Position numbers and translations under genes: made by a program. Source: an uncultured Poribacteria bacterium (GTDB lineage Bacteria > Poribacteria > WGA-4E > WGA-3G). Taken from it: a DNA stretch of 64,000 nt. Numbering within the stretch: the stretch's first letter is position 1; every line of letters starts with the position of its first letter. Under the pieces are notes generated by a model. It was not told where the DNA came from, made no database searches, and saw only the letters and a list, made by a program, of their open reading frames with translations. The stretch is from the NCBI GenBank assembly GCA_958296135.2, contig CATQHZ020000001.1, positions 224,001 through 288,000 on the forward strand. Reading direction: 5' to 3'. Positions 14,381-64,000 of this stretch are shown in pieces.

Positions 14381-15596
14381 CTATGCAAAGTCTACGAGTC
14401 TCTGTTCGGTCAGCGGTTTCCTGCTTCTTCCGCGCACACGCGGGTTCTGATGCCAGCCTACCAAAGTAGGTGTTACAGCATCTCCACAGGCGTTTTGGCT
14501 CTCCTCAGTGCTTGAGGCGAGCTGTCGAAGGTTTATAGCGGCGTTAACGTCTCTGTCCTCTACCAATCCGCAGATACCGCAGTGATATTCTCTGTCCTTG
14601 AGCGTCAGTTTGAATTCGCCACGTTTGACGTAGCCACAGGAACTGCATCGCTGTGTTGACGGCCAGAACTTATCTGCCGACACAATGCGGATGCCGCGCC
14701 ACACCGCCTTGTATTTGAGTTTGACGAGGAAGCCGCCAAGACTTGCATCGGCGAGTGCCTTGCTCAGCTTGCGGTTCTTCATCAAACCTTTCACGGTGAG
14801 GCTTTCAATGCCAAGTGCCGAGATGCCTTGCAGGATGCGATGTGTCACCTGATGATGGGCATCGGTTCTCACATTGGCGATACGGGCATGCAGGCGGGCG
14901 AGGCGTTCCTTCGCCTTCCACCAGTTTTTGCTCATGAACGTCTTGCGGGCGAGTGCCTTATTTGCACGGCGTAGTTTGCGTTCATTGACACGCAAGGCAC
15001 GCGGATTTTCGTAGACAGTGCCATCGTCCATCGTAGCGAGGGCAGAGATGCCGACATCACAACCTGCAGGGGGCAGTGCTGACGTGTCGGGCGGTTCCGG
15101 TTCATTAACTTCGACAAGGATGCTGAGATACCATCGATGTGCGATTCGCTTAACGAAAGCACGGCGAACTTCACCTGTCCATCGAGGGTTTTCATGCAAC
15201 CTAACCTGTCCAATTATCGGAAGGACGACGTGTTTACCGTCCGCCGTCATTTTGACAGTATTGACACCATTATCAATCTGGAACGCAGGGGCAGACTTAT
15301 GCGTCTTCCGTTTGGGCGCACCATTCTGTCCCGATTTGTATCTGGCGATAGCATCACCGAAAGCGTGGATAGCAGTCTTGCCTGCGTTTTGAGAACACGC
15401 GGCGAATTCGGGGAACACCTCGCGCTTCCGTGAGTTGAAGATTTTCTTCAAATCGTAGAGAGAGTTACGGCGGTCGGCGTTCCAATCAGAATGTGCGGCA
15501 TTATATGCAACACGGGCGAAATCCACGTGACGACAGAACATCGCAACTTGTTCCTCGCTAGGGTTGAGTGCTATCTTCTGGGCTCGTAGTGCCATA
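14381..15596 (-). CDS. tnpB: RNA-guided endonuclease TnpB
   Basis: N-terminal HTH (KIALNP..EQ), RuvC residues GCDVG / GIESL / DRDVNAA, Zn ribbon CSSC..CGIC; start may be the GTG at 15622. Confidence 0.93.
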
Positions 15597-15696
15597 GAGT
15601 CACCGTTCCCGTTGGGTGTCACCTGCTGCTAGATAGGTGGGGCGAGAGACACGGCGGGAAGCCGCGCCTAGCAGTCTCGCCCCCAACGGTAACTAT

Positions 15697-21403: not shown

Positions 21404-24065
21404 TTACACTTCATACACCTTCAGCACCTCATCGCCGTAATGGTTAATCACCTTCACGGCGATTTTGCCACCTGCAGGACGCGCAAACGGCAGACTCGCT
21501 GTCCGATACAGACTTGCCCACGCAGATGCGTCAATATCGTCACCCAACGTCTGCTGCAGTTTCTTGTAGGGCTCATCCGTGCCCGTGAAATAAGCGTGAC
21601 GCACGAAGAACGCCTCCTCGTCGTAGTTCGTGTCGATGAACCAACAGGCGATTGCGCCCGGGTTATCGGAACGCACCAAGCCTTGCCGCGCATCAAACAC
21701 ATCTACGCCGAGCAGTGTCACGACAAGCGTGTCGTCAGGCTGACGGTGAATCTTGATATCGGGTTCGCCGAAGTTCATGAAGAGGTTGCCCGCGCCGGTG
21801 TTTTTGAGTTCGCCTATCATTAATTCAGGACTCATCTTGATAGGGAGGATGGGGAGGCTGCCCATGCGTGTTCGCGCATCCGCCGTGTAACCTTCAAAGG
21901 TGAAACCGAGGACAATCAGTAGATCGAACTTGGAAAGGCACCGCGCGGCTTCTTTGACAGCAGCACCCATCCACTGCCGGCCGACTGTCTCATACTGCGG
22001 CCCGATGCTAATTGCGACGCGCTGTGAGTCGCCATTTTCATCGGTGTACGCACCCTCGGCGTGGAGATATTCGCCGGGGAAGGACGATATCCAGTCGAAC
22101 GTGAGGCGGTGTTGCACGCCGGCTGTTTTCAGATGTTCCAAGATGTGCGTGTGAAAGTTTTGGGACGCATCGGGCCCGGCGGGCTCTCCGACTGTATCTT
22201 GCACGCGGTGCGGCGATAAACTCTCAACGGTAAACGGACCCGTCACGCGCGTCCGCTTCCGCACTTCACGCGGCTGATCGTGGAGGATTTCGTTAGTCGC
22301 GCGACGTGCAGTGGAGGCATCCATCTCCGCCTGCCGCTCGCGCATGAGGGAAAGCCACTGCTGGTGCAACCGCTGCGTCTCCACGCTCCACGAAGGCTCT
22401 GTTTCTTGAGGGATGTCCCATTCTTCCCACTTTCGCCCCCCCCCAACTTACGTTAAGTTTTTTACGAATCTCGTCTAACCTCGGCGCATACGCGGCATGG
22501 ATGTCGTCAATCTCAAGGTTGTTCGCCATATCCGAGAGGCTGATATAGGGCGCGGTTTTGTAGACAAATCCCTGCTTGATGTCCGCTGCATCCTGCAACT
22601 GATAATAGGGATACACAGCAGACATGAGTCGGGTGCGCGCCAAGGCGAGCGCAACACGGGAGGTATCTATCGTTATCCATCGTCTGCCCCACTGTTCAGC
22701 AACGTAAGCGGTGGTGCCGCTGCCGCACGTCGGATCGAGGACGAGCTCGCCCGGGTCGCTTGTCATCAGCATACATCGTTGGATGACTTTCGGCTGAGTT
22801 TCAACGACGTAGGTTTTCCCCGAGCGTCCGCCGGCGGTATCTGTCCAAAGGTTGGTAATCGCGCGGCCGGGAGAGTCAGTGGCGTATCGAATATAGCGCA
22901 AAGATGTCCCTGGCGCAAAAAGTCTGCCTTGCTTTGCGAGTCTGTCTAATCCTTCGCGACTTGTTGCCCAACCTCTATCGCTTGTCGGCGTGAAAGGTTT
23001 GCCTTCAAACTCATATACGTAAGTGGCACTGCCTCCCGTCTGAGAGGTGACTGAATAATCGACAAATCGTCGACTGCCTTCAGGCAGGAGAGCTGGATTT
23101 TCTTTTTCAAGGTTTGTCATCCGACGGTGTGTTCCATCCGGCAGTTTGACCCGCGTATAAGATTCAAGGAGCGGGTCTGGTTGACGTTCGTCCCATTTGA
23201 TGTGGAGTGGCCGATACTTCATTCGTCCCCGGTCTTTGGCATACCAGAGGAGATAGTCAAATACCGACGAGATGGAGGTGGTAGAAGAAGTCATCTCCCC
23301 GCGAGTCCATGCAATTGTAGAGACGAAGTTGGCACTGCCGAAAACCTCGTCTAACAGCGACCGGACGAGGTGGACGTTCTCATCGCTGATTTGGACGAAG
23401 ATGCTGCCGCTGTCGGTGAGCAGCTCGCTGGCGACGGTGAGCCGGTCGCGCAGGTACGCCAAGTAGGAGTGAATGCCGAGCTCCCACGTATCGCGGAACG
23501 CGCGAATCTGTTCCGGTTGGAGCGTCACGTCTTCCGTTTTCGTATCACCGACGTTCGGTTTGCGCGTGCTGACTTGCCAGTTGCTCCCGAATTTGATGCC
23601 GTAGGGCGGATCGAAGTATATCGTCTGCACTTGGCTTTTGAGCCCCTCTTTCTCAGCGAGGGAATTCATGACGAGGAGGGAATCGCCCAGGATAAAGCGG
23701 TTGTGCCAGTTCTGTTCGTGCTGATAGAACTCGACCCGGGCCTCCAGTGCAAGGGTACTGAATTCTTCAAAGAGCAGTTCGGTCTGGCTGTTTTCCTCTG
23801 TCGCCTTTTTGCGAAGTGTTTGGATGATGGCTTCGGATTGGATGTGTTCCTGTGCGTAAATCGGCACGGCGTGAACGCCGAGGGCATCGCTATTCTGTTC
23901 GTCTTTGCCTTTCCAGACGAGCTGCGGATCCAGCGCGATATCGCGCGGGTAGCGGGTGGTGTCGGGTTGCGTTTCCGCGTCTGCCGCCAGCCCGCTGAGT
24001 TCCTGGGTAGGGATGTTGGTGCGTTTATGGGGGTGTTGATAATGGTCTGTCGATTTTTTTGGCAT
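21404..24065 (-). pseudogene. mod: Type III RM Mod-like DNA methyltransferase, frameshifted at a G9 tract (22436-22444)
   Basis: DPPYG and DPTCGSGTT motifs in the 5' ORF; C-terminal GPFTVESLSP...IAVKVINHYGDEVLKV in the 3' ORF; removing one G joins them (..SWGGRKWEEWDIPQ..). Confidence 0.85.
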
Positions 24066-24144
24066 CGTATGTCTCCTATCAACGGTGAAGGTGCCGTGCG
24101 GCGCGAAGTTAGGCGCGCCGCACGGCACTGACGCGTCTTGCGGC

Positions 24145-24480
24145 TTATTGCGACTCGTTCTCATTCTGCTGCGCCTTCTGGTTTTCCAGTTCGGCGATGC
24201 GCTCAACTAGCCGCTCGCTTGCTTTATCGCGTGCTTCAAGTTCAGCGATGCGCGATGTCTTTTCTGCATCACGTGCTTCGAGTTCGATGATGCGCTCGAT
24301 TAACCGTTCGCGTTCTCTGATTCTGAACAACACTTTTTGAGTCCCCCAGTGTATGAGTGCGGCGAGTAAAGTGCGAGTAGCGGGCCGCCACTGCTCTCTA
24401 AGTATCGCCCACTTGCCCCGGGCTTTTCTGTTTGCTGCATCGTCTCCCCCAATGGTTTCTTTTCCGCTTTTCGTGGCCAT
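24145..24480 (-). pseudogene. Internally deleted duplicate of the 24552-25028 gene
   Basis: Near-identical DNA lacking about 139 bp that encodes the TM region. Confidence 0.7.
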
Positions 24481-31624: not shown

Positions 31625-31663
31625 GCAGAACTTCCATCTCATTTGGAGGCGAAAGGACCGGAA

Positions 31664-33244
31664 ATGCTTCTCACACTGAAACAGGCAAGCGAATGGGCAT
31701 CGCAACACCTACGGAAAAACGTCACACCCGCAAACATCACCTATCTTATCCAATACGGACGGATTGAATCTGTTGTTGAAAACGGCGTAACGTTGATTCC
31801 CAAGGAAAGCCTCGTCGGTTACTACAACGCTTCCCTCAAACAGCGAAAGGCACGCTGGAAAACCGAACTCGGCGATGACTTGAACTGGGCGTTGTCCTTT
31901 GAACAGGTAAAGGAAGCGGAAACCACGAAGCATGTCCATCGACTGCACCCCTACAAAGGAAAATTCATCCCGCAACTGGTAGCGTATTTTTTGGACACGC
32001 ACACCGACGAATTTAAACGGGATACGTGTTTTCAACCCGGCGACATTGTCCTCGACCCGTTTTGTGGGAGCGGGACAACGCTCGTTGAAGCAAACGAGCG
32101 TGGCATGCACGCAATCGGCATTGATATTTCGGCATTTAACGCTTTCATCGGAAATGCCAAAGTTGCCACCTACGATTTCCTTCAACTCTGGGAGGCCAGC
32201 AGGGAAATTACGGCGGCACTCCGGCACTTTTACTCACGCAACGGTGCCCCCGCGTTTGAAGAAGCACTTGCAGAAAGGCTCGCGCACTTCAACAAACAGT
32301 ATTTCTCCGTTTCTTTCAAAAGCAAAGTCAGAACCGGAGAGACAGACCAGAAGTGTTACGGTGCCGAAAAGGAATCCGAATTTCTGAAAACGTATCGCCA
32401 ACTCGTCGCCGATTACGATGTTGACTTACAGATGCCAACTGATTCTGCACGTTTTATCAAGCAATGGTATCTTCCCGGCATCCGGGCAGAAATCGATTTC
32501 GTCCACAGCCTGATTCACAAAGTGGCAGAGAGCGGCACACGCAGTGCCCTGATGCTCATCTTAAGCCGGACGCTCCGCTCATGCCGCGCCACGACACACG
32601 CCGATTTAGGCACGTTGCGCAAACCCGTAACGACACCCTATTATTGCCGAAAACACGGAAAAATCTGCAAACCGCTATTCTCCATCTTGCGGTGGTGGGA
32701 GCGATATAGCAAGGATAGCATCCAACGCTGGCGTGATTTCAGCCGGTTGAGAACGGACACGTTTCAGCACTGCTTAACCGGGGATTCGCGGACAATGAAC
32801 ATCTTCGCGATGCTCCAGCAAACACATCCGCAGCTCGCGGAGCTTGCCCAAACGCAGCGGATTAAGGGCATTTTCACCAGTCCGCCTTATGTCGGCTTAA
32901 TCAACTATCACGAGCAACACGCTTACGCCTATGACATTTTCGGATTCAAGCGGCTTGATGAATTAGAGATTGGCCCGCTTTTCAGAGGAAAAGGGCGCGA
33001 GGCACGGGAATCCTATATTCACGGTGTGTCGGAAGTGCTGAAAAACTGCAAACGATTTCTGGCAGCGGATTACGATGTCTTTGTCGTCGCAAATGATAAG
33101 TTTAATATGTACCCGACTATCGCGGAAACAGCGGGAATGCACATCGTTAAGCAGTATAAGCGGCCCGTCTTAAACCGGACAGAGAAAAATCGAGGCTCGG
33201 CGTATTCCGAAACGATATTCCACCTCAAAGAGAAAACGAGTTGA
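31664..33244 (+). CDS. Type II DNA methyltransferase (N4-C/N6-A) with N-terminal HTH
   Basis: HPYKGKFIPQL, DPFCGSGTT, TSPPY. Confidence 0.9.
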   Translation: MLLTLKQASEWASQHLRKNVTPANITYLIQYGRIESVVENGVTLIPKESLVGYYNASLKQRKARWKTELGDDLNWALSFEQVKEAETTKHVHRLHPYKGKFIPQLVAYFLDTHTDEFKRDTCFQPGDIVLDPFCGSGTTLVEANERGMHAIGIDISAFNAFIGNAKVATYDFLQLWEASREITAALRHFYSRNGAPAFEEALAERLAHFNKQYFSVSFKSKVRTGETDQKCYGAEKESEFLKTYRQLVADYDVDLQMPTDSARFIKQWYLPGIRAEIDFVHSLIHKVAESGTRSALMLILSRTLRSCRATTHADLGTLRKPVTTPYYCRKHGKICKPLFSILRWWERYSKDSIQRWRDFSRLRTDTFQHCLTGDSRTMNIFAMLQQTHPQLAELAQTQRIKGIFTSPPYVGLINYHEQHAYAYDIFGFKRLDELEIGPLFRGKGREARESYIHGVSEVLKNCKRFLAADYDVFVVANDKFNMYPTIAETAGMHIVKQYKRPVLNRTEKNRGSAYSETIFHLKEKTS

Positions 33245-33248
33245 AGCG

Positions 33249-34019
33249 ATGCAGTCACAACGACAGACGATGATTAAAGAGAGGCTTATAGAGTGCATCC
33301 AGACTAAATTCCGCACCTATACGCCTGAAACGAACTATATGCCGTTCCACCACCGCTTAATTGGTAAAGATAGGATGGCATTATTTTCTTTTATCCAGTC
33401 CTTGAATACGACATTTGGAGTGTCCATTTACGAGCCAGTCGCTCTTGAACTAGCACGTAACCGATTTCGGGTCGCGGAGACACAGGTTAAACCTGCCGGG
33501 ACAATTAGCACCGAGGCACACCGGCAAATCCAAACTATCATCAATGGGTTGGTGAGCACAACGAGAGAACCTGACAGAACCGTCGAAACGGAAGAAATTA
33601 GAGCGGTTTGCCAAGTCGGAGAGCTCAACAGTGTGAAACTAACCCGGGTCGACATTTGGCTGGAAAACCACGAAGGCGAGTTGTTTTTAATTGATCTGAA
33701 GACTGTCAAACCTAACGTGAAGGGGTTTGAGTCATACAAACGAACGCTCCTAGAGTGGACTGCGGCAGAACTCGCGCGCAACCCAGATGCTGTTATCAAA
33801 ACAATAATTGGCATTCCCTACAACCCTTACGAACCCGGACCGTATCGCCGGTGGACGATGAGAGGGATGTTTGACATGCAAAACGAAATCTTGGTAGCAG
33901 CAGAACTCTGGGATTTTATCGGTGGAGAAGGCAGCTACGCAGAACTGCTGGCCGCCTTTGAACTCGCCGGTGTTGAACTGCGCCCTGAAATTGATAACTA
34001 TTTTGAGCAATTCAAATAG
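33249..34019 (+). CDS. TdeIII/MjaII-family type II restriction endonuclease
   Basis: MPFH.RL.GKDRMALFSFIQSLNT.FG.SI.EP, D....IDLK..KPN, PYNPY; adjacent to the MTase. Confidence 0.85.
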   Translation: MQSQRQTMIKERLIECIQTKFRTYTPETNYMPFHHRLIGKDRMALFSFIQSLNTTFGVSIYEPVALELARNRFRVAETQVKPAGTISTEAHRQIQTIINGLVSTTREPDRTVETEEIRAVCQVGELNSVKLTRVDIWLENHEGELFLIDLKTVKPNVKGFESYKRTLLEWTAAELARNPDAVIKTIIGIPYNPYEPGPYRRWTMRGMFDMQNEILVAAELWDFIGGEGSYAELLAAFELAGVELRPEIDNYFEQFK

Positions 34020-45939: not shown

Positions 45940-46545
45940 ATGGCGTACAGCAATTTTACCTTAGAGTCGGTGGAAGCAGCGTTTCAGTTAGAAGTCGTTG
46001 AGTCGGCAGGCCTCTTTGCCGCCACAGTCCCTGTCGCTCCGAGTCCCCATCTCACCACGGCGTTGGCGAAGAAGACTGCATTAGCCACCGCTATTGGCAC
46101 CGAGAAAGCCCGGTCGGAACTCATTGTCGCCGACATTCTCGTCGAACTGCGGGAACATTTTGATTGCCGCATCAGTTTCTTTTCCGGCATCGACTTCAAC
46201 GTGGATGCGGCCAACGAACTCACCGGTGTCTGCGATTTCTTAGTGAGTCTGTCGCCGAGGCAATCGCTTTTAAAGGCACCCGTCATCGCCCTGGTGGAAG
46301 CGAAGAATGTTGACGTGAGACAAGGACAAGGGCAATGTGTTGCAGAGATGATTGCCGCCCAACGCTTTAATGCCGAGAGAGGCAATGACATCCCGCGCAT
46401 TTACGGGGCTTCCACTACCGGCACCGAGTGGCTGTTCCTCAAATTAGAGGCGCAGTCCCTGCACATAGATATCAATCCCTACCAGCTCTCGCAGTGTGAC
46501 AAAATCCTCGGCATCCTCGCCGCCATGGTAGAACAAAAAGCATGA
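45940..46545 (+). CDS. PD-(D/E)xK-like putative nuclease, paralogue 1 (201 aa)
   Basis: TEKARSE, G.CDF, VEAK, GQC.AEM.AAQ.FN, YG..TTG..W.F. Confidence 0.8.
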   Translation: MAYSNFTLESVEAAFQLEVVESAGLFAATVPVAPSPHLTTALAKKTALATAIGTEKARSELIVADILVELREHFDCRISFFSGIDFNVDAANELTGVCDFLVSLSPRQSLLKAPVIALVEAKNVDVRQGQGQCVAEMIAAQRFNAERGNDIPRIYGASTTGTEWLFLKLEAQSLHIDINPYQLSQCDKILGILAAMVEQKA

Positions 46546-46619: not shown

Positions 46620-47225
46620 ATGGCGTACAGCAACTTTACCCTAGAAACCGCGCGGAAGACGTTTCACCTTGAAGAAACTCAGTCTATCGGCATCTTTGCC
46701 GACATAGAGCCCGTGACACCGCGTGCCCACTTTATCACAGAGTTCGCGGATAGAGTGGCAATAGCCGCCGCGATAAACACCGAGAAGGCAAAGTCGGAAC
46801 TCCTTGTCGCCGAAGTGCTGTTTGAACTCCGCGCGCACTGCACCCGGCAGATTAGTTTTTTTTCGGGGATTGACTTCAACGTCAATGCGGACGATGAGCT
46901 CACCGGTGTCTGCGACTTTCTCGTGAGTCTGTCGCCGAACCAATTTGATTTAGAAGCACCTGTCATCATTCTTGTAGAGGCAAAGAGGGATGCACCGGCA
47001 TTCGGCCTGGGGCAGTGTGTGGCGGAGATGATTGCCGCCCAACGCTTTAATACCGAGAGAGGCAATGACATCCCCCGCATTTATGGTGCCGCCACCACCG
47101 GCACCGAGTGGCTCTTCCTCAAATTGGAGGAACGGCACCTGCAAATTGACAGGGATATCTACCACATCAAGCAGTGCGGCGCAATCCTCGGCATCCTCGC
47201 CCGCATGGTGGAACAAAAAGCGTGA
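46620..47225 (+). CDS. PD-(D/E)xK-like putative nuclease, paralogue 2 (201 aa)
   Basis: Same motifs as paralogue 1. Confidence 0.8.
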   Translation: MAYSNFTLETARKTFHLEETQSIGIFADIEPVTPRAHFITEFADRVAIAAAINTEKAKSELLVAEVLFELRAHCTRQISFFSGIDFNVNADDELTGVCDFLVSLSPNQFDLEAPVIILVEAKRDAPAFGLGQCVAEMIAAQRFNTERGNDIPRIYGAATTGTEWLFLKLEERHLQIDRDIYHIKQCGAILGILARMVEQKA

Positions 47226-47296: not shown

Positions 47297-47902
47297 ATGG
47301 CCTATAGCAGCTTTACGTTAGATTCGGCAGTGAAAGCGTTTCACCTAGAAATCGTTGAATCCGCCGACCTTTTTCAGCAAATAGAGCCAATAGTACCGCG
47401 GCCCCATTTTATAACGGAACTGGCGAAAAAGGCCAAGGTCGCGGCCGCCATCGGCACAGAAAAGGCGAAGTCCGAACTCATTGTCGCCAGCGTGCTGTTT
47501 GAACTCCTCGAGAACACTGATTACTGCATCAGTCTGTTTTCGGGGATTGAATTCAACGTCGATGCCCAAAGTGGTTTGAGCGGCGTGTGTGATTTTCTCG
47601 TCAGTTTGTCGCCGGTGCAATATCTCTTACAGGCACCTATTATTGCCCTCGTTGAAGCGAAGAAAGATAATGTGAGAGATGGGCTCGGGCAGTGCATCGC
47701 CGAAATGGTGGCCGCCCAACGCTTTAACACGGAAATGGAGAATGACATCCCCCGTGTTTATGGTGCTGCCACGACAGGCAGAGATTGGCAATTCCTCAGA
47801 TTGGCGGGAAGGAAGTTGCACCTGGATAGGGAGATTTACCAGGTCTCGCAGTGTGACAAAATCCTCGGCATCCTCGCCGCCATGGTAAAACAAAAAGTCT
47901 GA
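47297..47902 (+). CDS. PD-(D/E)xK-like putative nuclease, paralogue 3 (201 aa)
   Basis: Same motifs as paralogue 1. Confidence 0.8.
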   Translation: MAYSSFTLDSAVKAFHLEIVESADLFQQIEPIVPRPHFITELAKKAKVAAAIGTEKAKSELIVASVLFELLENTDYCISLFSGIEFNVDAQSGLSGVCDFLVSLSPVQYLLQAPIIALVEAKKDNVRDGLGQCIAEMVAAQRFNTEMENDIPRVYGAATTGRDWQFLRLAGRKLHLDREIYQVSQCDKILGILAAMVKQKV

Positions 47903-52390: not shown

Positions 52391-55300
52391 ATGCCAAAAC
52401 GGACAGACATCCAAAAAATCTTAATTATCGGTTCCGGTGCGATTATCATCGGGCAGGCATGCGAATTTGACTACTCCGGCACGCAGGCGTGTAAGGCACT
52501 CAAAGAGGAAGGCTACCAGCTCGTGCTAGTCAACAGCAACCCTGCAACAATCATGACAGACCCGGACTTCGCCGATCGCACCTACATTGAACCTATCACC
52601 GCTGACACCGTGGCGCTCGTCATCGCGAAGGAACGGCCGCAGGCGTTGCTGCCGACGTTAGGCGGGCAAACCGCGCTCAACGTCTCTGTCGAACTCGCCG
52701 AAGCCGGCGTGCTGGATAAATACGGCGTAGAACTCATCGGCGCAAAATTGCCAGCCATTCAGAAAGCGGAAGACCGGGCACTCTTCAAGAAGGCGATGCA
52801 AAAGATCGGGTTAGAGGTACCACAAAGCGGCATCGCGCGCACCGTTGCAGAGGCGTTAACCCTCGTGGAGAAAATCGGCTTCCCGGCAATCATCCGGCCC
52901 GCGTTTACCCTCGGCGGCACCGGCGGCGGCATCGCCTATAACATTGAAGAATACCAGAAAATGGTAGCCGCCGGCATCGCACTCAGCCCGATTAACGAAC
53001 TCCTCATCGAAGAATCTGTCATCGGTTGGAAGGAATTTGAGTTGGAGGTAATGCGGGACGGTGCCGACAACGTCGTTATTATCTGCTCCATTGAAAACGT
53101 CGATGCTATGGGTGTCCACACCGGCGATAGCATCACCGTCGCACCCATCCAAACGCTGACAGACCGGGAATATCAGCAAATGCGGGATGCCGCCATCAAA
53201 ATCATCCGGGAAATCGGGGTAGACACGGGCGGCTCTAATATCCAATTCGCTGTGAATCCGCGCACCGGACAACAAGTCGTCATTGAAATGAACCCGCGCG
53301 TCTCGCGCAGCTCCGCACTGGCATCCAAAGCCACCGGGTTCCCAATCGCCAAAATCGCCGCGAAACTCGCTGTCGGCTATACCCTCGACGAAATTCCAAA
53401 CGATATTACTGCTGAAACACCCGCCTGCTTTGAACCTACCATCGATTACGTCGTCGTCAAAATCCCGCGGTGGGCATTTGAGAAATTCCAAGGCACCGAT
53501 GAGACCTTGACAACACAGATGAAATCGGTAGGCGAGGCGATGTCCATCGGCAGCACTTTCAAAGAGGCACTCCAGAAAGGACTGCGTTCGTTGGAGAACG
53601 GCTGGCACGGGTTTGACAACCACCCGCTTGAGAAACTCCCGCTCTCCGAGCTCTCTAGCAAATTAACGGTGCCGAACGTCGAGCGCATCTTTTACATCAA
53701 ATCCGCGCTCAAACACGGGATGAGCCTCGAAGAAATCCACGCTTATACCCACATCGATCTGTTTTTCCTTTACAACCTCAAGGAAATCGTCGATTTTGAG
53801 CAGGAGTTAACCCAAAATGCATCGCGGAACGGCGGACGAGGGCCCGCCTCGCGCTACGGGGAATATGACGTAACGCTGCTCCGTCGCGCCAAACAATTCG
53901 GATTTTCCGACCGGCAGCTCGCCGACATCTACGACAGCACAGAACACGAAATCCGTCACATCCGTAAGCAACTCGGGGTGGAGGCAACCTTCAAGACTGT
54001 GGATACCTGCGCAGCCGAATTTGAGGCACAAACCCCTTACTACTATTCCACTTGTGCAAGTGAAGATGAGGTGCATCCCACGGACAAACCGAAAATCATG
54101 ATCCTCGGTGGCGGACCCAACCGCATCGGACAAGGCATCGAATTTGACTACTGCTGTGTCCACGCCGCAATGGCACTCAAAGCCGATGGCTACGAAACCA
54201 TCATGGTGAACAGCAACCCCGAAACCGTCAGCACCGATTACGACACCTCCGACCGGCTCTACTTTGAGCCCCTCACCTGTGAAGATGTGCTGAATATCTA
54301 TGACAAGGAGAAACCGATAGGGGTTATCGTCCAGTTCGGCGGACAGACACCGTTGAACCTCGCGATGGCACTGAAAGCCGCAGGCGTGCCGATAATCGGA
54401 ACAAGCCCCGAAGACATCGCCCGTTCGGAAGACCGGCGGCTCTTCAAAGAGGTGCTAGACACCATCAGGCTCAAGCAGCCGCCGAACGGCACGGCGACTT
54501 CTAGCGCGGAAGCTGCACCTATCGCCGCCGCACTCGGCTATCCAGTCATCGTCAGGCCCTCGTATGTGCTGGGCGGCCGCGCCATGCAGATTGTTTACGA
54601 TGAAGAACTGCTTCAGGACTATATGCACTCCGCCGTGCAAGCCTCGCCGGAGCATCCCGTGCTAATCGACAAATACCTTGAGGACGCGATTGAAGTGGAC
54701 GTGGATGCCATCTCCGACGGAAACCGCACCGTCATCGGCGGGATAATGGAGCATATTGAAGAAGCGGGTGTCCACTCCGGCGACAGCGACTGCGTGCTGC
54801 CCCCCCACACCCTCGTCGATGAGCAGATTATGCAACTCAAGGAGTACACCTACTCCCTCGCCAAGGCACTCCGCGTGCGCGGCCTGATGAACGTGCAATA
54901 CGCCATCAAAAACGATGAGATTTATGTATTGGAGGTGAATCCGCGCGCCTCGCGCACCATCCCGTTCGTGAGCAAAGCCATCGGGGTGCCGCTGGCGAAA
55001 TTGGCGGCGCGCGTGATGGCGGGCAAAACGCTAGACGCGCTCGGGTTCACGCAGGAAATTGAGCCGACTTATTTCAGCGTGAAGGTCCCTGTCTTCCCTT
55101 TCAACCGCTTCCCCGGCGCGAACTCTCGCCTCGGGCCAGAAATGAAGTCCACGGGGGAAGTCATGGGCATCGATACCGATGTCTCGCGTGCGTTCGCGAA
55201 AGCACAAAAGGCGTGCGGCTACACGCTCCCGCTCGCCGGCAAGGTGTTTATCAGTGTGCGGAATAAGGACAAACGCGCGATTATTTTCATCGCCAAAAAG

Positions 55301-55630
55301 TTGTATGATATGGGGTTCGAGCTCATCGCGACACACGGCACAGCGAAAGTGCTGCTCCGCAACGGCATGGCGGCAGAGCTCGTCTTCAGCATCGGCAAAG
55401 GGCGGCCGACAATTCACGATTATATCAAAAACCACGCCGTCGCACTGATTATCAACACGCCTACCGGCGATTTGCACCGGCCGAACGAACTGCTCATCCG
55501 GCAGATGGCCATAGAACACGACATCCCGATTTTCTCTACCGTTCCCGGCGCAGCGGCAGCGGTAAACGCGATTGATGCCCTGCAACGCGGCGATATTTCT
55601 GTCGCACCCCTGCAGGATTATTATTTATAG
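52391..55630 (+). CDS. carB: Carbamoyl-phosphate synthase large subunit
   Basis: [44 protein letters not shown] domain. Confidence 0.98.
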
Positions 55631-57541: not shown

Positions 57542-58975
57542 ATGAACGCTCAGAAAACCGTGCTGATAGTCGATGCAGACCGGCGGCAGCGCGCCCAAGT
57601 CTGTCAAACGCTCAGCGGTGAAGGACTTCGCCTCATTGTCAAAGACAACATGTATCAGGCGTTTCACCAAATCGAATACCAAAAAATAGATATCCTCATC
57701 GCACCACTGAAGGCAGAACGGATTGACGGCTTGGCTCTCTTGGAAGCCGCAACGCAGCAACACCCCGATGTCGGTATCCTTTTCATTACCGCACCAAATG
57801 TGTTGGAAACCGACATCGGCATCAAGGCGATGACAGCACACGAAGGCACCTACTTCCTGCCGAAGCCTGTCAATCCGGTTCACTTGAAAGCACTGCTACA
57901 GCGAACGCTTCAAAACCAACAACTCGCATTTGAAAACCGGCAGCTGCAATCGCAAATCGACGAACAGGAAGGCCTGCGCCGCATGACAGGAAAATCGCCG
58001 CAAATCAGCCGCGTCCGCGAGATGATTACCCAAATCGCACCGACAAGCGCGACGGTGATGATCTACGGTGCGCGCGGCACCGGCAAGGAGCTCGTCGCAC
58101 GGGCAGTACACCATCGCAGCCTGCGCCGCGGTTCACTCATCGCCTTTAACTGCGCAACACTCAACGAAAACCTCGCCGAATCGGAACTCTTTGGACACGA
58201 ACGCGGCTCGTTTAGCGGCGCATATTATCAACGGAAAGGACGATTTGAACTCGCACACGGCGGAACACTGTTCCTTGACGAAATCTCAAAACTGAGTTTA
58301 TCCAATCAGGCGCGCCTCCTACGCGTCCTCGAAGAACGCGAATTTGAACGCGTCGGCGGCTCAAAAATAATCAAAGTTGACGTGCGAGTCGTCTGTGCAA
58401 CCAACAGCGATTTGGAACGCGCCTGCGAAGAGGGATACTTCCTACCAGACCTTTACGACAGGCTCAACGTCATCCCTATTCATCTACCGACACTGCAGGA
58501 ACGGATGGAGGATATCCCGCTGCTAGTGAAGGATTTCCTTCAGGAATTTTGCCGACAAAACAAGAAACCGCGGATAACACTCACGCCAGAGGCCATCCGA
58601 ACCTTGATGAAATACGACTGGCCCGGCAACGTGCGCGAATTGAAAAATTGCATTGAGGGACTCGTCGTCATGTCCACGCACACCCGCTTGCAACAGGCAG
58701 ACCTGCCGGAACGCATCCTCAAGGCGACGGGCGTGATGATGTCAAACATCGTCTCCGTGCCGACGCTGCAGACAGCAGCGCGCTCGCACACCGGCGGCCC
58801 GCCCAGTCTCAACGTAGAAATCGGCATGTCCCTTGACGAGATTAACCGGGAAGTGCTCCGCGCCACGCTGGAATATGTGGATAATAATAAGGTCAAGGCG
58901 GCGAAAATCCTCCAAATCAGCCGGCGAACAATCCAACGGAAGGCGAAAGAATATGGACTCTGCAATGACGATTAG
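57542..58975 (+). CDS. NtrC-family sigma54 activator with atypical receiver domain
   Basis: REC-AAA+-Fis HTH layout; GTGKE, ESELFGH, LFLDEI, WPGNVRELKN. Confidence 0.9.
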   Translation: MNAQKTVLIVDADRRQRAQVCQTLSGEGLRLIVKDNMYQAFHQIEYQKIDILIAPLKAERIDGLALLEAATQQHPDVGILFITAPNVLETDIGIKAMTAHEGTYFLPKPVNPVHLKALLQRTLQNQQLAFENRQLQSQIDEQEGLRRMTGKSPQISRVREMITQIAPTSATVMIYGARGTGKELVARAVHHRSLRRGSLIAFNCATLNENLAESELFGHERGSFSGAYYQRKGRFELAHGGTLFLDEISKLSLSNQARLLRVLEEREFERVGGSKIIKVDVRVVCATNSDLERACEEGYFLPDLYDRLNVIPIHLPTLQERMEDIPLLVKDFLQEFCRQNKKPRITLTPEAIRTLMKYDWPGNVRELKNCIEGLVVMSTHTRLQQADLPERILKATGVMMSNIVSVPTLQTAARSHTGGPPSLNVEIGMSLDEINREVLRATLEYVDNNKVKAAKILQISRRTIQRKAKEYGLCNDD

Positions 58976-59564
58976 AAAGAAACTTGTAAACCCATATCTG
59001 GCACTCGTCGGGTTTCAGACGCAAGCCGCAGGCGACACTGGGCATCTTGCAGGCTTCCCGTTTCATCTCTCAGACATCTTCGGACCGGTTTTCGGAGTGC
59101 TGCTGCCGACGCTCATCCTCGTTTTCGTTGCGACGGCCGTCTATGCATGGGCGCGGCACAGAAACCGAAGACAGGAGCCCTCGCGATTTGAGGGGCGCGT
59201 TCCTCAACCGCGGCGCGCGCACACGCAGGCGGACACCCCGGAAGCAAGCGCGTTAGAAGCGTTAGAGTTTGCCCTCTACAAGCGCGCCGATACTGCGATT
59301 CGTGATTACTATGCCAGCATTGCGTGCCTGATGCTGCAGTATCTCGGCGAGAAATACCAGATAAAGGTGCATGAGACGACAACGGCAAAGATCTTAGCCG
59401 ATGTCGCAGCCGCGCTCACCGATAGCCAGCTCGACTACATCGGCGAAATTCTTCATACGTGTGATATGGTGCAGCTCACCCGGCATCATCCCACGCGTTC
59501 GGAACAAGACGATATTTACGAAACCGCGCGAGATTTTCTCGAAGGGCAGGCGAAAGGTTTATAG
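58965..59564 (+). CDS. Single-TM hypothetical protein (Bat-operon accessory-like)
   Basis: TM helix, then a YY......YL......E.TT..I pattern. Confidence 0.6.
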   Translation: MTIRKKLVNPYLALVGFQTQAAGDTGHLAGFPFHLSDIFGPVFGVLLPTLILVFVATAVYAWARHRNRRQEPSRFEGRVPQPRRAHTQADTPEASALEALEFALYKRADTAIRDYYASIACLMLQYLGEKYQIKVHETTTAKILADVAAALTDSQLDYIGEILHTCDMVQLTRHHPTRSEQDDIYETARDFLEGQAKGL

Positions 59565-59678
59565 CCACATTTCGCGGGAAGCACGTTCATTTGACTTGAC
59601 AAGTGCTTTTGAAATATGTTATCATAACTATTGTTTCTTACAGTTCAAGTCTAATCTGTCACAAATGAAGGTGTCTAC

Positions 59679-60302
59679 ATGAAAATAGCTGAGTTTCAAG
59701 GAAGCGGAATCGTGGAGGCACCGGAACTCCCCGGTATTTACGCGTGGTATTATCGTCCACAAGCATCTGGAAACAACGTCCCTGCCATTCTTGGACATTT
59801 GATAAAGACTCCGTTTCGCGTGAAAACCGAAATTGCTATGCGATATCGGGTAATCTGGACAGCGGAATCCGAGGTTGATGTTCTCCACGGGGCCGAACGC
59901 CAACCTGCAGACCAGGTTGTTGCAAAGATAGTTACCGATGGCGGCGAACTCATCAAATCCTTGCTTCAAAATGCGATGGTGCCCTACTTTGCAACACCTC
60001 TCTATATCGGAATTTCCCGAAACTTATCTCGGAGGGTGAAGGAACACTACGATGCCTTGACGCAACTCTGGGAAACAGATGCGCAGGTAAGCAGCTACCT
60101 TGAACAGCATCCCGATGCAGCAGTGGAGGAAGGGCAAGATCAGTGTGATTTAAACCATTCGTTTCCACTCAACGCAAGAGTCAAGGGCATCGCACCAAAC
60201 GAACTAGTAGTTTGTGTTTTTCCAATTGAGGCTCCGGATAACCTGCGAGACTTGGAACAAATTCTTCAGATCCTTGCCGATCCAATTTGCGGTAGGAGAT
60301 AA
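59679..60302 (+). CDS. GIY-YIG nuclease domain protein
   Basis: PGIYAW...LYIGIS.NL..R..EH...LE motifs. Confidence 0.75.
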   Translation: MKIAEFQGSGIVEAPELPGIYAWYYRPQASGNNVPAILGHLIKTPFRVKTEIAMRYRVIWTAESEVDVLHGAERQPADQVVAKIVTDGGELIKSLLQNAMVPYFATPLYIGISRNLSRRVKEHYDALTQLWETDAQVSSYLEQHPDAAVEEGQDQCDLNHSFPLNARVKGIAPNELVVCVFPIEAPDNLRDLEQILQILADPICGRR

Positions 60303-60306
60303 ACCG

Positions 60307-62613
60307 ATGTCAACAATGTTCAGCGTCCCAAAAACTCCCGTTTTCGGATCCTTTGGGGAATTTACAATTGGGGAGGGCTCAAATACCCTTCGTGCCAGAT
60401 ATCTTCTCACGAAAATCAGGCCCGGGAACGATGGCACGTGGGAATGCGAGTTGGCATCCCAAATGAAGCCTTGGCGCGAGGTCTTCAATGTTGAAGAATT
60501 GAGTTTTGATGAACTCTTACAACGAGAGCTGGACGACTCGCGCGTCGCGCAAGACCTCATCCCCTATCTGCTTGGCGAATCCGGAAATAGGGCAAAGTTC
60601 TTTCCACCGATTCTCGCCGTAATTGTCCCGCGACAGCAGGTTGGATCCGGAATTGAAGCCTTTTATCCCGCTCGGGCGGCTCAAGGCGCATCGGTTGAGC
60701 ATTACGGCAATCTGTTTGATTTTGAACGGATTGAATGGGGTGGCGAACTTACCCCACTAGCGCGTCTTAACTATAATCGGCAACGCGCCGCGTTCATTAT
60801 TGTTGACGGCCAACACCGCGCCATGGCTGTGCTCGCGCTGCACAGACAGCTGAACGATAATTGGGGTGATAACGCCTTCGCCTCTTACTACGAGCACATC
60901 CAGGTGACTCCCGAACAAGTCAAAAGCATTGAATTGCCGACATGTATCATCTATTTCCCAGATTTACATGATGACAATCCGCAGCCGCGAGAACAGGGGC
61001 TCGATTTAAACTCTGTTTGTCGGGAGATATTCCTGGTTGTCAATCGGAGTGCTAAGCATGTGAGCGAAGCGCGGGAACTTTTGCTAGACGACGAGGATAT
61101 CGCCGCACGCCTGATGCGCCGAACCCTCTCAACGCTGAAAAACCGCGGCGAAGAACAAGCTGACTTAGCCCGACTTTATTCAATTGCTTATGGGGATTCA
61201 GACACTGAAGCCGGACAAAAAGAGGTAGTCACAGGACAACTTGAATACAGCAGTGCCATTGCGATTCACAAAGTCCACAGCGCGATTGCTTTTGGTGCTA
61301 ACGAAGGGTTTAAGTTAAAAAATCCTCAGGACATTTCGGGCGGACGCGCGACTCAGAACAAGAACCGTCCGGCCGAGATATTACTAGGAACGAGTGTGGA
61401 AGACTACCGAATACTCGCGCGCAATTCGGGGAAAACACTCCCCACCGCCGAAGTCGACGTAGTCGTCGAAAAACTGGGCGACTTGGCGGACACTGCCTTG
61501 GTGCGACTTTTCGACCTGTTTCGTCCGTTTCAGATTCATAATGACGAGCTCCGAGAATTGAGACTGCGGCTTTCAGACGTTCAAGCTGACGCTCGGTTTG
61601 AACAGAAGAAAGCGTATACGCTGATTTCTGAGGGAAGCGGGGTGCGGAACGTCTTTGACTCACATTTCAGGCGGCTGAGTGAGGAGAAGTATGAACGCGA
61701 GCGCGAGGGGCAAACAATCCCACAACACATCCTGAATCAGATTGACTTCTGCAGAACTGTTAAGCAGGCACTCGGTGAGCACGAACGCGACTTCCATCGC
61801 CGCCGCGCTTGCAACTTCTTCGGGATAAACCGTGCCCTATTTGATAGTGCCGCTTATCGGGAAGAACGGGTATTCCTGAGTGACAAGGCACAAAAACTCT
61901 TCCATACTGTGTCAACCCAAGCGTTTCAGTTGGGTTACGCCATGGCGATTTTCACCGTCGTTGAAGAGTTGAAACGCGGCAGACCGGATGCCTCGCCCTT
62001 GCTGTATCACAACAGGCTGAAACTTGTCGAATTCGTGACAGAGGCATATCTCGCCGCGCTCAACACTTACTTTTCCCCCAAGGACAATACGATTCATCAG
62101 ACACTCACTGGCTACATCAGCGAGCCGCGGGCATCAGTTTTTGACGCAAATTCTCCGGGGCTCCGTGGACTCTTGGCGATGAGCGTCAATGAGCTCAACG
62201 AACGCCAATGGCGATTTTTCCGCTACGCCATTTTAGAGATTGTCCACTCGCCGTTTTGCTGGCATGCTGCTCAAAAAAAAATGAAGCAGATGGACTGCAA
62301 ATGGGCATTAACGTGGTATAAAGAAGCCATCCCCAAACTCGTAGATGGCCTGATGTCCGAACGTGCAAAGTATGTTGAGGATGCCGTTGAAGCGGCTGTA
62401 AGAGGCCGCGAATTTGAGTCGCTGAAAATGCAAACGGAATCTGAAGCGAGAGATGCCGGCAAAAGCGAAGAACGCCTCCGGCAACTTGTAGAAGAACTTC
62501 AGCATTCCCACCGGACAGCAGCGAAGCAAAACGCGCTTAGCCACCTCAAAGCAAGTTTGGAAACGGTTGAATCCACATCGGCAATCATCCAACGCTTACG
62601 CGCTAACCTGTAG
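60307..62613 (+). CDS. Large DGQHR (DndB/ParB-like) domain protein
   Basis: QR.LD..RV...I..YL, FFPPI, IIVDGQHR, F..VN..A..V; long helical C-terminus. Confidence 0.8.
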   Translation: MSTMFSVPKTPVFGSFGEFTIGEGSNTLRARYLLTKIRPGNDGTWECELASQMKPWREVFNVEELSFDELLQRELDDSRVAQDLIPYLLGESGNRAKFFPPILAVIVPRQQVGSGIEAFYPARAAQGASVEHYGNLFDFERIEWGGELTPLARLNYNRQRAAFIIVDGQHRAMAVLALHRQLNDNWGDNAFASYYEHIQVTPEQVKSIELPTCIIYFPDLHDDNPQPREQGLDLNSVCREIFLVVNRSAKHVSEARELLLDDEDIAARLMRRTLSTLKNRGEEQADLARLYSIAYGDSDTEAGQKEVVTGQLEYSSAIAIHKVHSAIAFGANEGFKLKNPQDISGGRATQNKNRPAEILLGTSVEDYRILARNSGKTLPTAEVDVVVEKLGDLADTALVRLFDLFRPFQIHNDELRELRLRLSDVQADARFEQKKAYTLISEGSGVRNVFDSHFRRLSEEKYEREREGQTIPQHILNQIDFCRTVKQALGEHERDFHRRRACNFFGINRALFDSAAYREERVFLSDKAQKLFHTVSTQAFQLGYAMAIFTVVEELKRGRPDASPLLYHNRLKLVEFVTEAYLAALNTYFSPKDNTIHQTLTGYISEPRASVFDANSPGLRGLLAMSVNELNERQWRFFRYAILEIVHSPFCWHAAQKKMKQMDCKWALTWYKEAIPKLVDGLMSERAKYVEDAVEAAVRGREFESLKMQTESEARDAGKSEERLRQLVEELQHSHRTAAKQNALSHLKASLETVESTSAIIQRLRANL

Positions 62614-62624
62614 GTGCCTGAAAA

Positions 62625-63512
62625 GTGGACAGAAAGCAAATTATCCAAAAATTTCAGACCTTGAATTTGTGGAAAAGAGGCGGAGAAAGGGCACCCCACA
62701 AACCTCTGTTGGTTCTGTATGCTATCGGGAAATTGCTGCGCGGTGAGGACAGGCTCATTCCGTACTCCGATGTAGAGAAAAATTTCAAAAATTTACTGAG
62801 CGAGTTTGGCCCGAGGCGCAACTTTTATCTCGCCCAATTCCCGTTTTGGCGGTTGCAAAATGACGGAGTTTGGGAGGTATCCGATGCCGACAAAATTGGG
62901 CAAAGTTCCAGTGGCGATGCCTACATAACCGATTTGCGACGTTATGATGTCACTGGTGGATTTCTTGAACCTATCGCCAACCAACTTCTGAACGACGCGA
63001 AACTGGCTTTTGAAATCGTTCAGAACTTGCTAGACGCTCATTTCCCGTCAACTCTCCATGAGGACATTCTTCAAACCGTGGGGATCGAGTTGCCTCTTCA
63101 AGTTTCGCCGCGGCAAACGCGCGATCCGCACTTCCGAGAGAACGTCTTAAAAGCGTATGAGTATAAATGCGCAGTCTGCGGCTTCGACGTGAAGTTGCGC
63201 CATCAGCCAGTTGCGTTAGAAGCCGCCCATATCAAATGGCATCAGGCAGGCGGTCCCGATATCGAAGTGAACGGACTGGCACTCTGCTCGCTGCACCATA
63301 AGTTGTTCGACCGTGGGGTTTTCACGCTATCCGAGCATTTGGAAGTGCTAGTATCCGAGTATGCCAACGGATCCGTGGGGTTTGAGGAATGGCTGATGCG
63401 GTTTCACGGTAGAACCATCAACTTTCCACAGCGGCACTCATATTATCCGCAAGGGAATTTCATCGGTTGGCACATGAAAGAGGTATTTAAAGGTGCTTCT
63501 CGCGAATTGTGA
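62625..63512 (+). CDS. SBD-HNH phosphorothioate-dependent restriction endonuclease-like protein
   Basis: RAPHKPLL.L and PFWRL..DG.W sulfur-binding domain; RD..FR..VL.AY...CAVCG, EAAHI, NGL.LC.LHH..FD. Confidence 0.88.
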   Translation: MDRKQIIQKFQTLNLWKRGGERAPHKPLLVLYAIGKLLRGEDRLIPYSDVEKNFKNLLSEFGPRRNFYLAQFPFWRLQNDGVWEVSDADKIGQSSSGDAYITDLRRYDVTGGFLEPIANQLLNDAKLAFEIVQNLLDAHFPSTLHEDILQTVGIELPLQVSPRQTRDPHFRENVLKAYEYKCAVCGFDVKLRHQPVALEAAHIKWHQAGGPDIEVNGLALCSLHHKLFDRGVFTLSEHLEVLVSEYANGSVGFEEWLMRFHGRTINFPQRHSYYPQGNFIGWHMKEVFKGASREL

Positions 63513-64000
63513 CCGGCGATATCCGCTTGACTTTTCGGTGAGTCACTTTTTCCTTGACAGTGCTTTTCAAATATGATATAATTTTATTGTTCCTTAATTT
63601 GATTCCACCGGGCGACGTTTCGACGGTTGCTGTCCAGCCAGACGAGACGTTGAAAATGGATTCTCGGTTTGGAAGATTTTGACGCAAACGGTGTTGAGAA
63701 ACTGAAAGGACAGTGGGCGAATTTCCTTACGCCGTCGCAAACTGAAGAAGAGCGCGACCGGATGTGGAAGCAGATTGAATCGAAGAAAGCCGCCATATCC
63801 GGGTAGTTCGATTTGAGTGGATGCCCTATTACGAGGTTCTGAGAGATAACTATGTTCATCTGCTGAACCTACGCGAATGCTATAATTGCCGGTAGGCGCG
63901 CTTTTTAAGTGTGCACGAACCACAAAGTACACGGTTACAAACCGCACCTACTGCTGCATCGTAGCAGAATCAAAATATGTTAACAAATGAGGTTAAGAAA

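Follow-up and report, generated by a model that had tools for sequence, protein, structure and literature searches.

A predicted GIY-YIG nuclease and a long DGQHR protein form a gene pair recurrent in Ssp DNA phosphorothioation clusters

Described phosphorothioation systems and the Poribacteria operon

SspE, an effector linked to the phosphorothioate (PT) modification genes sspBCD, carries an N-terminal DUF262 domain that hydrolyzes GTP upon stimulation by PT; this activity requires the DGQQR motif of the domain and controls the C-terminal HNH nickase (PMC9646914); DndI behaves like SspE, as a PT-stimulated nucleoside triphosphatase (NTPase) that controls a nickase (PMC11662687). A total of 2,211 of 2,678 sspBCD clusters are without both sspE and sspFGH, and further restriction partners have been suggested (PMC8092258). 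We analyzed a stretch of 64,000 nucleotides (nt) from an uncultured Poribacteria bacterium (assembly GCA_958296135.2, contig CATQHZ020000001.1, positions 224,001-288,000, forward strand), referred to in full as the window, which near its end holds three adjacent genes, g1, g2 and g3, that are predicted to encode a GIY-YIG nuclease, a long DGQHR protein and a nuclease with a sulfur-binding domain (SBD) and an HNH domain. Our analysis indicates, with moderate confidence, that this interval consists of an undescribed Ssp-associated g1-g2 module, locally stranded, and a separately acquired SBD-HNH gene, g3, under one promoter. The relevant features are as follows, in amino acids (aa) where lengths of proteins are given.

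g1, 59679..60302, + strand: predicted divergent GIY-YIG nuclease, 207 aa
g2, 60307..62613, + strand: DndB-family DGQHR (ParB-like) protein, 768 aa from the ATG that matches the conserved N-terminus
g3, 62625..63512, + strand: predicted SBD-HNH type IV restriction endonuclease, PT-dependent, 295 aa, GTG start
Operon promoter, 59596..59625, + strand: sigma-70-type, TTGACA-18-TATCAT, 11 of 12 positions, extended -10 TG
Second promoter, 63554..63582, + strand: 12 of 12 positions, outside the operon and inside the interval first reported

All three genes are co-oriented, with gaps of 4 nt between g1 and g2 and 11 nt between g2 and g3, and the site at 59596-59625 is the sole strong promoter-like site before them. 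Neither gap holds a promoter or terminator site; a weak promoter-like match (9 of 12 positions) lies within g2, and a few terminator-like hairpins lie within the genes. A similar TTGACA-N17-TATCAT, read by eye and then aligned, is present upstream of g1 in a syntenic sister locus, L001, which is described below. The longest open reading frame (ORF) covering g2 begins with a GTG at 60214, and the ATG was chosen by agreement with the conserved N-terminus.

A first-pass annotation of the window, made from its sequence alone, had described the co-orientation, the gaps of 4 and 11 bp and the single promoter (the 59596-59625 site), and it was correct in each. Its gene identities (GIY-YIG, DGQHR protein of about 770 aa, SBD-HNH) are borne out by motifs and profiles, with g2 measuring 768 aa; the long, unannotated helical C-terminus it ascribed to g2 reappears in the AlphaFold2 (AF2) model and has no Pfam or PDB match; and the absence of dnd and ssp genes from the window that it reported was confirmed by tblastn and a PADLOC scan. 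The interval it had drawn, 59596..63582, starts at the -35 hexamer of the operon promoter and ends on the -10 hexamer of the second promoter, not on a terminator.

The g1-g2 pair resembles SspE in several respects. Both are linked to sspBCD, usually right after sspD, and SspE joins a ParB-superfamily NTPase module with a DGQxR motif to a DNA nickase, the proposed logic being a nucleotide switch that gates a nuclease; SspE has 771 aa (PMC9646914) and g2 has 768 aa. The differences are equally clear. SspE is a single polypeptide composed of DUF262 (DGQQR) and a DUF1524 HNH-type nickase, whereas the pair has a separate GIY-YIG protein and the g2 C-terminus is helical and of no known family. Comparison of g2 with the SspE of locus L011 by hhalign gives a probability of 1.3%, there is no match of g2 to the PADLOC SspE model or to GmrSD_N or GmrSD_C, and the pair co-occurs with a true SspE in loci L011 and L045.

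With DndB, g2 shares the domain family (PF14072 in 49 of 49 members, TIGR03187, and an invariant DGQHR), and both are found near PT-modification genes. However, DndB models span 338-356 positions, whereas g2 has 768 aa, including an extra helical half of about 430 aa, and the partner genes of g2 are ssp genes rather than dndCDE. Unlike g2, DndB is not known to be paired with a GIY-YIG gene.

The resemblance of g3 to ScoMcrA lies in a predicted sulfur-binding domain followed by HNH, and in sequence homology to the solved ScoMcrA SBD, although g3 is a short two-domain form of 295 aa and the solved ScoMcrA chain has 561 aa. Finally, SspFGH and DndFGH are alternative partners of PT-modification clusters, SspFGH being encoded beside sspBCD (PMC8092258), but they are three-gene modules of the ATPase/translocase type, unlike g1 and g2, which have no PADLOC match to them.

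Conservation and genomic neighborhoods of the g1-g2 pair

We scanned one genome per species and obtained 58 distinct g2-bearing loci from more than ten bacterial lineages; ORFs were called for every locus and clustered, and representatives of the clusters were annotated. A g1 homolog is encoded directly upstream of g2 in 46 of the 53 loci that have at least 700 nt of upstream sequence and the g2 N-terminus, so the neighborhood conservation of the GIY-YIG and DGQHR genes, which the first-pass annotation had proposed as a check, is found. The distance between the g1 stop and the g2 start is 0-4 nt in all 23 loci in which both ends could be placed, and the fact that the two genes abut across such deep divergence suggests translational coupling. 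No fusion of g1 to g2, or of any nuclease to g2, was found among the 120 listed g2 relatives (597-806 aa) and the 150 listed g1 relatives (152-334 aa).

The pair is found predominantly within Ssp clusters. Of the 58 loci, 45 encode one or more of SspB, SspC and SspD, and the share is 32 of 37 where both flanks extend for 5 kb or more. Among the 47 loci in which g1 and g2 are neighbors, 26 have sspD directly upstream of g1, and the usual order is sspB-sspC-sspD-g1-g2. The recurrent neighbors were recognized with PADLOC models as SspC (E=0, 1112 bits), SspD (3.7e-116), SspB (2.3e-101) and SspA/DndA (about 1e-144), and the SspB neighbor cluster also matches Pfam DUF4007 (1e-94). This linkage spans Poribacteria, Cyanobacteria, Alpha-, Beta- and Gammaproteobacteria, Actinobacteria, Planctomycetes, Myxococcota, Gemmatimonadetes, Clostridia and others, and it is kept in a distant branch with 21-27% identity to the window proteins, containing Sphingomonas, Brevundimonas, Mycolicibacterium, Antrihabitans and Pirellulales. 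Since the pair sits in Ssp PT-modification clusters in 45 of the 58 loci, we consider it to be linked to PT modification and not modification-independent.

Several other genes recur around the pair. In several loci the region downstream of g2 encodes a PbeA-like superfamily 2 (SF2) helicase, an MzaB-like GHKL ATPase and a phospholipase D (PLD) nuclease, and some loci encode a TIGR04096 protein, annotated as [quoted passage not shown]. In the Poribacteria loci L003, L004, L006, L008 and L042, g2 is directly followed by a gene for a conserved protein of about 817 aa (for example L004:10332-12782), which has no PADLOC match and a marginal match to HATPase_c_3 (E=8.7e-4), is absent from the window and from L001, and may be a third component in the Poribacteria lineage. 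In at least seven well-flanked sspBCD loci (L015, L020, L021, L035, L038, L041 and L058) the pair is the only conserved accessory. In L012, g2 directly follows sspD and there is no g1, and L031 and L053 are likewise without g1. In the Hormoscilla loci L028, L029 and L039, g2 is directly preceded by a small ORF and a PIN-domain gene and neighbors coaBC; L039 is not counted in the 53 testable loci.

The third gene of the operon does not follow this pattern. A full-length SBD-HNH protein is encoded in just 3 of the 58 loci, none of which is arranged as in the window: in L001 it comes after sspC and sspD, 5 kb downstream of g2, in L031 it adjoins g2 in divergent orientation and there is no g1, and in L055 it lies 7 kb upstream. 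As a crude indicator, the 120 listed relatives of g3 and the 120 listed relatives of g2 have no apparent contig in common except that of the window, and, by the same crude indicator, two listed g3 relatives apparently share contigs (16203 and 5907 nt) with listed SspC relatives. The g3 family has 5848 homologs and that of g2 has 273. The trio is not a conserved system, and the value of the locus lies in the pair. The first-pass annotation had proposed a self-contained, modification-independent three-gene system, and this proposal is not sustained by the counts of 3 of 58 loci for SBD-HNH and 45 of 58 for the location of the pair inside Ssp clusters; co-occurrence of the trio elsewhere, on which it had staked the proposal, is largely absent, the arrangement of the window being found in none of the 58 loci. 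It did not recognize the trio as a named system; for the pair we found neither a PADLOC model nor a paper that describes it, and g3 is of the known SBD-HNH type.

The most informative comparison is with L001, a Poribacteria chromosome that is syntenic with the window from carB via a sigma-54 regulator to g1-g2, with 84-90% nt identity over most blocks and 76% in one divergent block. After g2, L001 encodes SspC (28 nt on), SspD, an SBD-HNH protein that begins 16 nt after sspD, and then a pair of genes of a cyclic oligonucleotide-based antiphage signaling system (CBASS), namely a DncV-like cyclase and a patatin (SBD-HNH and CBASS genes at L001:15196-18131); no sspB was found in the 18-kb stretch. 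The presence of SBD-HNH beside PT-modification genes implies either that the two systems use different PT sequence contexts or that the Ssp system is decaying, the second option being raised because sspB is missing from that stretch.

In the window, the sspC-sspD genes that separate g2 from SBD-HNH in L001 are missing from this position. Both g1 and g2 are 86% identical to their L001 copies, and each has a ratio of nonsynonymous to synonymous substitution rates (dN/dS) of 0.21, with a dS of about 0.34, which is the signature of purifying selection. In contrast, g3 is 61% identical to the L001 SBD-HNH protein and its synonymous sites are saturated (proportion of synonymous differences, pS, 0.77). 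This uneven divergence indicates that the region downstream of g2 has been exchanged and that g3 has a history different from that of the pair. A separate observation from the same comparison (window 57542-62613 against L001) is that the dS of the sigma-54 regulator is 0.56, compared with about 0.34 for g1 and g2; the lower value for g1 and g2 may mean that the two lineages exchanged the pair more recently, or that codon constraints differ.

The genes sspB, sspC and sspD are not adjacent to the cassette in the window, and no Ssp homolog was found within its 64 kb: a tblastn search of the window with SspA, SspB, SspC, SspD and SspE representatives returned nothing at E<=0.01, a PADLOC scan of 47 further window ORFs gave no Dnd or Ssp model at E<=1e-5, and the 59.6 kb upstream of the cassette contains no ssp or dnd gene that could be detected. 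Among the 120 listed of 1413 relatives of the L001 SspC, none is apparently encoded on the contig of the window, which is weak negative evidence.

The literature contains no account that we could find of a GIY-YIG and long-DGQHR pair in Ssp loci, although supplementary neighborhood tables might list the pair unnamed, and this statement covers papers outside subscription. A term search of the comparative-genomics reappraisal of Dnd systems (PMC10853773), the SspFGH paper (PMC8092258) and the paper on PT in BREX type 4 (bacteriophage exclusion; PMC12914056) found no mention of the pair. In PADLOC v2 there is no significant model for g1 or g2.

Domain content of the three proteins and surroundings of the operon

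The g1 protein contains the motifs ..PGIYAWYY.. and ..PLYIGIS.., but its match to the Pfam GIY-YIG profile PF01541 (E=0.031, 15 bits) is under the gathering cut-off of 22.6. In its family, 11 of 44 members match at E<=0.05, sub-threshold and with the best at 7.6e-4. Between its GIY and YIG strands g1 has an insert of about 85 residues, which probably breaks the profile match. Residues G19, Y21, Y24, P107, Y109, I110, G111, L116 and R119, and further H123, F162, L176, E193, P202 and G205, are invariant in the 44 homologs; among them are the tyrosines and the Arg, His and Glu that we take to be the GIY-YIG active site, by analogy with I-TevI (for numbering) and UvrC. The catalytic motifs that define the GIY-YIG superfamily (GIY, YIG, Arg, His and Glu) are therefore all present while the Pfam cut-off is not reached, and on this evidence g1 is predicted to be an intact GIY-YIG catalytic module. 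Its AF2 model has a predicted local distance difference test score (pLDDT) of 84.9. A fold search against the PDB places R.Eco29kI on top (E=0.062, probability 0.96), with none at E<=0.001; the UvrC N-terminal domain is matched with a target-normalized template modeling score (TM-score) of 0.64-0.68, and the best fold matches overall have E=0.06-0.6. The family comprises 965 clusters (50% identity) at E<=0.001, and its 150 listed members have 152-334 aa.

The g2 protein contains IVDGQHRAM at residues 165-173, and the DGQHR at 167-171 is invariant in 49 homologs. Its scores against Pfam DndB PF14072 (E=7.4e-5, 22.4 bits) and TIGR03187 DGQHR (1.6e-8, 34.6 bits) are under the respective cut-offs of 29.1 and 58.85; PF14072 is matched at E<=0.01 by 49 of 49 aligned relatives, and most database relatives of g2 carry a precomputed PF14072 label. 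Profile alignment by hhalign with the 420-aa DndB-like protein of L006 gives a probability of 93% (E=3.5e-7) over residues 47-331, and the DndB equivalog model TIGR03233 is matched with only 15.1 bits, its cut-off being 328. Judged by these profiles, g2 would be a member of the DndB/DGQHR superfamily and not DndB proper.

The remainder of g2 has no recognizable relatives outside its own family. The AF2 model (pLDDT 84.1) has helices from about residue 317 to 765, and the C-terminal half, about 430 aa, is predicted to be all-helical. This half has no Pfam match in any of the 49 members, and its best score in the ESM Atlas is 0.84, under the level of 0.9 at which a match would be more than a lead. 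A g2 profile matched only coiled-coil noise among PDB sequences (polycystin-2 and Cas12m, E>=0.016), and the fold search with the whole model against the PDB returned none at E<=0.001, the top matches being unrelated helical and membrane proteins and a ParB-CDP (cytidine diphosphate) dimer appearing at rank 45 (E=1.4).

The canonical HEPN motif is R-x4-6-H. A HEPN domain in g2 is no more than a lead, the conserved FFRYAILEIVHS stretch being R-x7-H and not invariant in distant members; DndB has been said to carry a HEPN domain (Makarova 2013).

Relatives of g2 number 273 at E<=0.001 among 8000 candidates scored. Of the 120 listed, nearly all have about 760-806 aa, with four shorter ones (597-731 aa). 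Their sources are sponge-associated metagenome-assembled genomes (Poribacteria, Gemmatimonadetes and Gammaproteobacteria) and many Cyanobacteria. The relatives P0002-P0005, on metagenomic contigs, are 85-88% identical.

For g3 the profile evidence is strong. It matches NF045808, "phosphorothioated DNA-binding restriction endonuclease", over profile positions 2-284 of 284 (1.9e-107, 358.6 bits, cut-off 180) and HNH_2 (3.4e-11, 43.3 bits, cut-off 21). Residues 21-152 match the ScoMcrA structures 5zmm_A (4.2e-12) and 5zmo (1.2e-8), and also the 7cc9 family, and the HNH part matches TagI. These homologies identify g3 as an apparently ordinary member of the ScoMcrA-type SBD-HNH family.

The second promoter starts 42 bp past g3 and faces the window end, out of the cassette. 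The two promoters are near-duplicates, with 88% identity over a 24-nt stretch (repeat family D3) and, by eye in the alignment, similarity over about 40 nt; the 26-nt consensus of the duplicated promoter had 0 matches in 100 window shuffles. The -10-proximal motif (AAATATGTTAACA) recurs a third time, as a partial copy, at 63973-63985. Following the second promoter there is only a 45-aa ORF (63669-63806), with no family match, before the window stops at 64000, 488 bp past g3, which is all the downstream sequence covered.

Upstream of the cassette the window encodes a PyrR-like protein, a dihydroorotase, CarA and CarB (carB at 52391-55630), which belong to pyrimidine biosynthesis, then unannotated ORFs, and a sigma-54 response regulator at 57542-58975, upstream of g1. 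A scan of the 64-kb window for transfer RNA (tRNA) genes found none, so there is no tRNA-linked island boundary, and an Rfam scan of 59000-64000 found nothing at E<=1.

Further genes related to defense or mobility are encoded elsewhere in the window. Three tandem 201-aa paralogs (45940-46542, 46620-47222 and 47297-47899, + strand) each match PDLC01472, a CRISPR-associated PD-DExK model, at about 1e-46, and none has a Pfam match. A type III methyltransferase on the - strand is apparently split into two overlapping ORFs (21407-22384 and 22296-24206), which cover positions 57-612 and 632-982 of the 983 in one PADLOC profile; either a frameshift or a true division of the gene may account for this. 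The ORFs at 31643-33241 and 33249-34016 (+ strand) encode a type II restriction-modification pair (methyltransferase 3.7e-224, restriction enzyme 4.5e-14). The ORF at 14384-15622 (- strand) encodes a TnpB/Cas12f-like protein (Cas12u4 model, 9.6e-69) and is probably an IS200/IS605-type element.

Possible functions of the pair

The most plausible mechanism for the pair, by analogy with SspE, is that the DGQHR protein licenses the GIY-YIG nuclease. The DGQHR domain of g2 would bind or hydrolyze a nucleotide in response to DNA or its PT status, and g1 would be the DNA-nicking or DNA-cutting effector gated by g2, so that g1-g2 would follow the logic of SspE and DndI with two separate genes, without belonging to either family. 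We infer a physical g1-g2 complex, sensing of nucleoside triphosphate (NTP) or PT by g2, gating of the nuclease and an anti-phage role. The g3 protein, for its part, would bind PT DNA via its sulfur-binding domain and cut with its HNH domain, as a stand-alone type IV enzyme.

Prediction of a g1-g2 complex gave a median score of 0.57 (0.71, 0.57 and 0.00 in the individual runs), the best of three controls scoring 0.00. In the benchmark for this score the mark is reached by 116 of 157 solved complexes and by 2 of 215 mismatched pairs, and among the solved complexes only 18 of 157 reach it with a score of 0.60 or lower, as do both mismatched pairs that pass. Agreement between the runs is at least 0% of contacts, and partner pLDDT is at least 72. 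The prediction lends weak support to a complex.

A number of observations weigh against an Ssp-associated sensor-nuclease module. The domain scores of g1 and g2 from the window are under curated cut-offs, all fold matches of g1 have E>=0.06, the complex score is weak with one of three runs at 0.00, g2 has no detectable similarity to SspE (as judged by hhalign and the PADLOC SspE model), and the proposed sensor and nuclease roles rest on analogy. The association itself has exceptions, as 7 of the 53 testable loci have g2 but no g1; in L011, SspE takes the place of g1 and is followed by g2, and in Hormoscilla (L023, L028, L029 and L039) g2 is solitary, with neither g1 nor ssp genes, beside a PIN-domain gene. 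Many pair loci also encode other candidate restriction modules (the helicase/ATPase/PLD set, the 817-aa protein or SspE), so that these systems need not rely on the pair for their nuclease. Finally, DndB, to which g2 is related, has been described as a transcriptional regulator of modification and not as an effector (PMC4507180, PMC10853773).

This last point leads to an explanation that we regard as unlikely though far from negligible, namely that g2 does for Ssp systems what DndB does for Dnd systems. It would then be a regulator, transcriptional or NTP-dependent, by which PT modification is limited or targeted; g1 would be a nickase that assists in sulfur insertion or repair, and the pair in the window would be a relic or have been re-used. 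The only recognizable domain of g2 is indeed DndB/DGQHR (PF14072 in 49 of 49 members; hhalign 93%), DndB has been reported as a negative regulator of PT modification (PMC4507180, PMC10853773), and the pair lies directly after sspD in 26 of 47 loci, that is on the modification side, before the helicase/ATPase/PLD modules or the modules designated c9. Its co-occurrence with SspE (L011 and L045) and with other restriction-like modules also favors a regulator. However, a regulator of ssp genes has no obvious use at a locus without them, and yet g1 and g2 are intact there with a dN/dS of 0.21; g2 is twice as long as DndB and has a large extra helical domain; and the invariant GIY-YIG catalytic set suggests DNA cutting. 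An effector role is favored because the nuclease active site is invariant, because the pair is the sole conserved accessory in at least seven well-flanked sspBCD loci, and because the pair in the window, which no ssp genes adjoin, is intact and evolves under purifying selection.

Two other explanations concern the operon as a whole. That g1, g2 and g3 form one new, modification-independent three-gene defense system has a very slim chance of being correct. The shared promoter, the gaps of 4 and 11 nt, the window without any ssp or dnd gene and the lack of a PADLOC model for g1 or g2 would all fit such a system, but it has been largely refuted by the neighborhood census, with the trio arrangement in 0 of 58 loci, SBD-HNH in 3 of 58 and each time differently arranged, and the pair embedded in PT-modification clusters in 45 of 58. 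The different history of g3 (61% against 86% identity to L001), its 5848 family members against 273 for g2, and the lack of an apparent common contig, that of the window excepted, between 120 listed relatives of each point in the same direction.

Alternatively, the whole operon may have been re-purposed, in a host without PT of its own, as an anti-PT (type IV) cassette, with g2 directing g1 at incoming Ssp-type PT DNA and SBD-HNH covering other PT contexts; this we consider decidedly improbable. The window has no Ssp genes, g1-g2 appear to be co-transcribed with a gene for a predicted PT-dependent nuclease, and SspC is very common in related bacteria (1413 matches, several of the few named ones being Poribacteria). 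Among loci of 6 kb or more, SBD-HNH is also encoded more often where Ssp is lacking, in 2 of 9 against 1 of 42 with Ssp (Fisher p=0.077), or in 3 of 10 against 1 of 42 when the window is counted (p=0.019), a comparison that is post hoc and made between loci that are not independent. These numbers are tiny, though, and L001, with sspC, sspD and SBD-HNH, indicates that co-residence with Ssp is tolerated; moreover, this explanation presupposes that g2 reads PT, and the remaining genome may hold sspBCD. It is quite unlikely that g1-g2 is a third, widespread and unnamed Ssp effector class after SspE and SspFGH, composed of a long DndB-like sensor of nucleotide or PT and a GIY-YIG nuclease, which has here been cut loose from the modification genes and placed in one operon with SBD-HNH, so that components which read PT and ordinarily mark self are turned against PT-marked invaders from Ssp-positive neighbors.

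The preferred reading remains that of an Ssp-associated g1-g2 module standing beside a separately acquired g3. What is new is a widespread, uncharacterized Ssp-associated pair within PT-based defense, the nuclease type of g3 being already known. In the window, a natural "stranded" copy of the pair is subject to purifying selection, a hint that its function may not require modification genes next to it. Since cultured Nostoc, Scytonema and Limnospira are among the listed g2 relatives, and the loci include Arthrospira, Azospirillum, Sphingomonas and Pseudomonas isolates, among them Arthrospira platensis PCC 7345 (L035), Azospirillum tabaci W712 (L021) and Sphingomonas rubra (L048), experiments are feasible. 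Most sspBCD clusters, 2,211 of 2,678, are without a known restriction partner (PMC8092258). The g1-g2 genes, found after sspD from Cyanobacteria to Actinobacteria, are a concrete and testable candidate for this missing partner; alternatively, they may be the missing DndB-like controller of Ssp modification.

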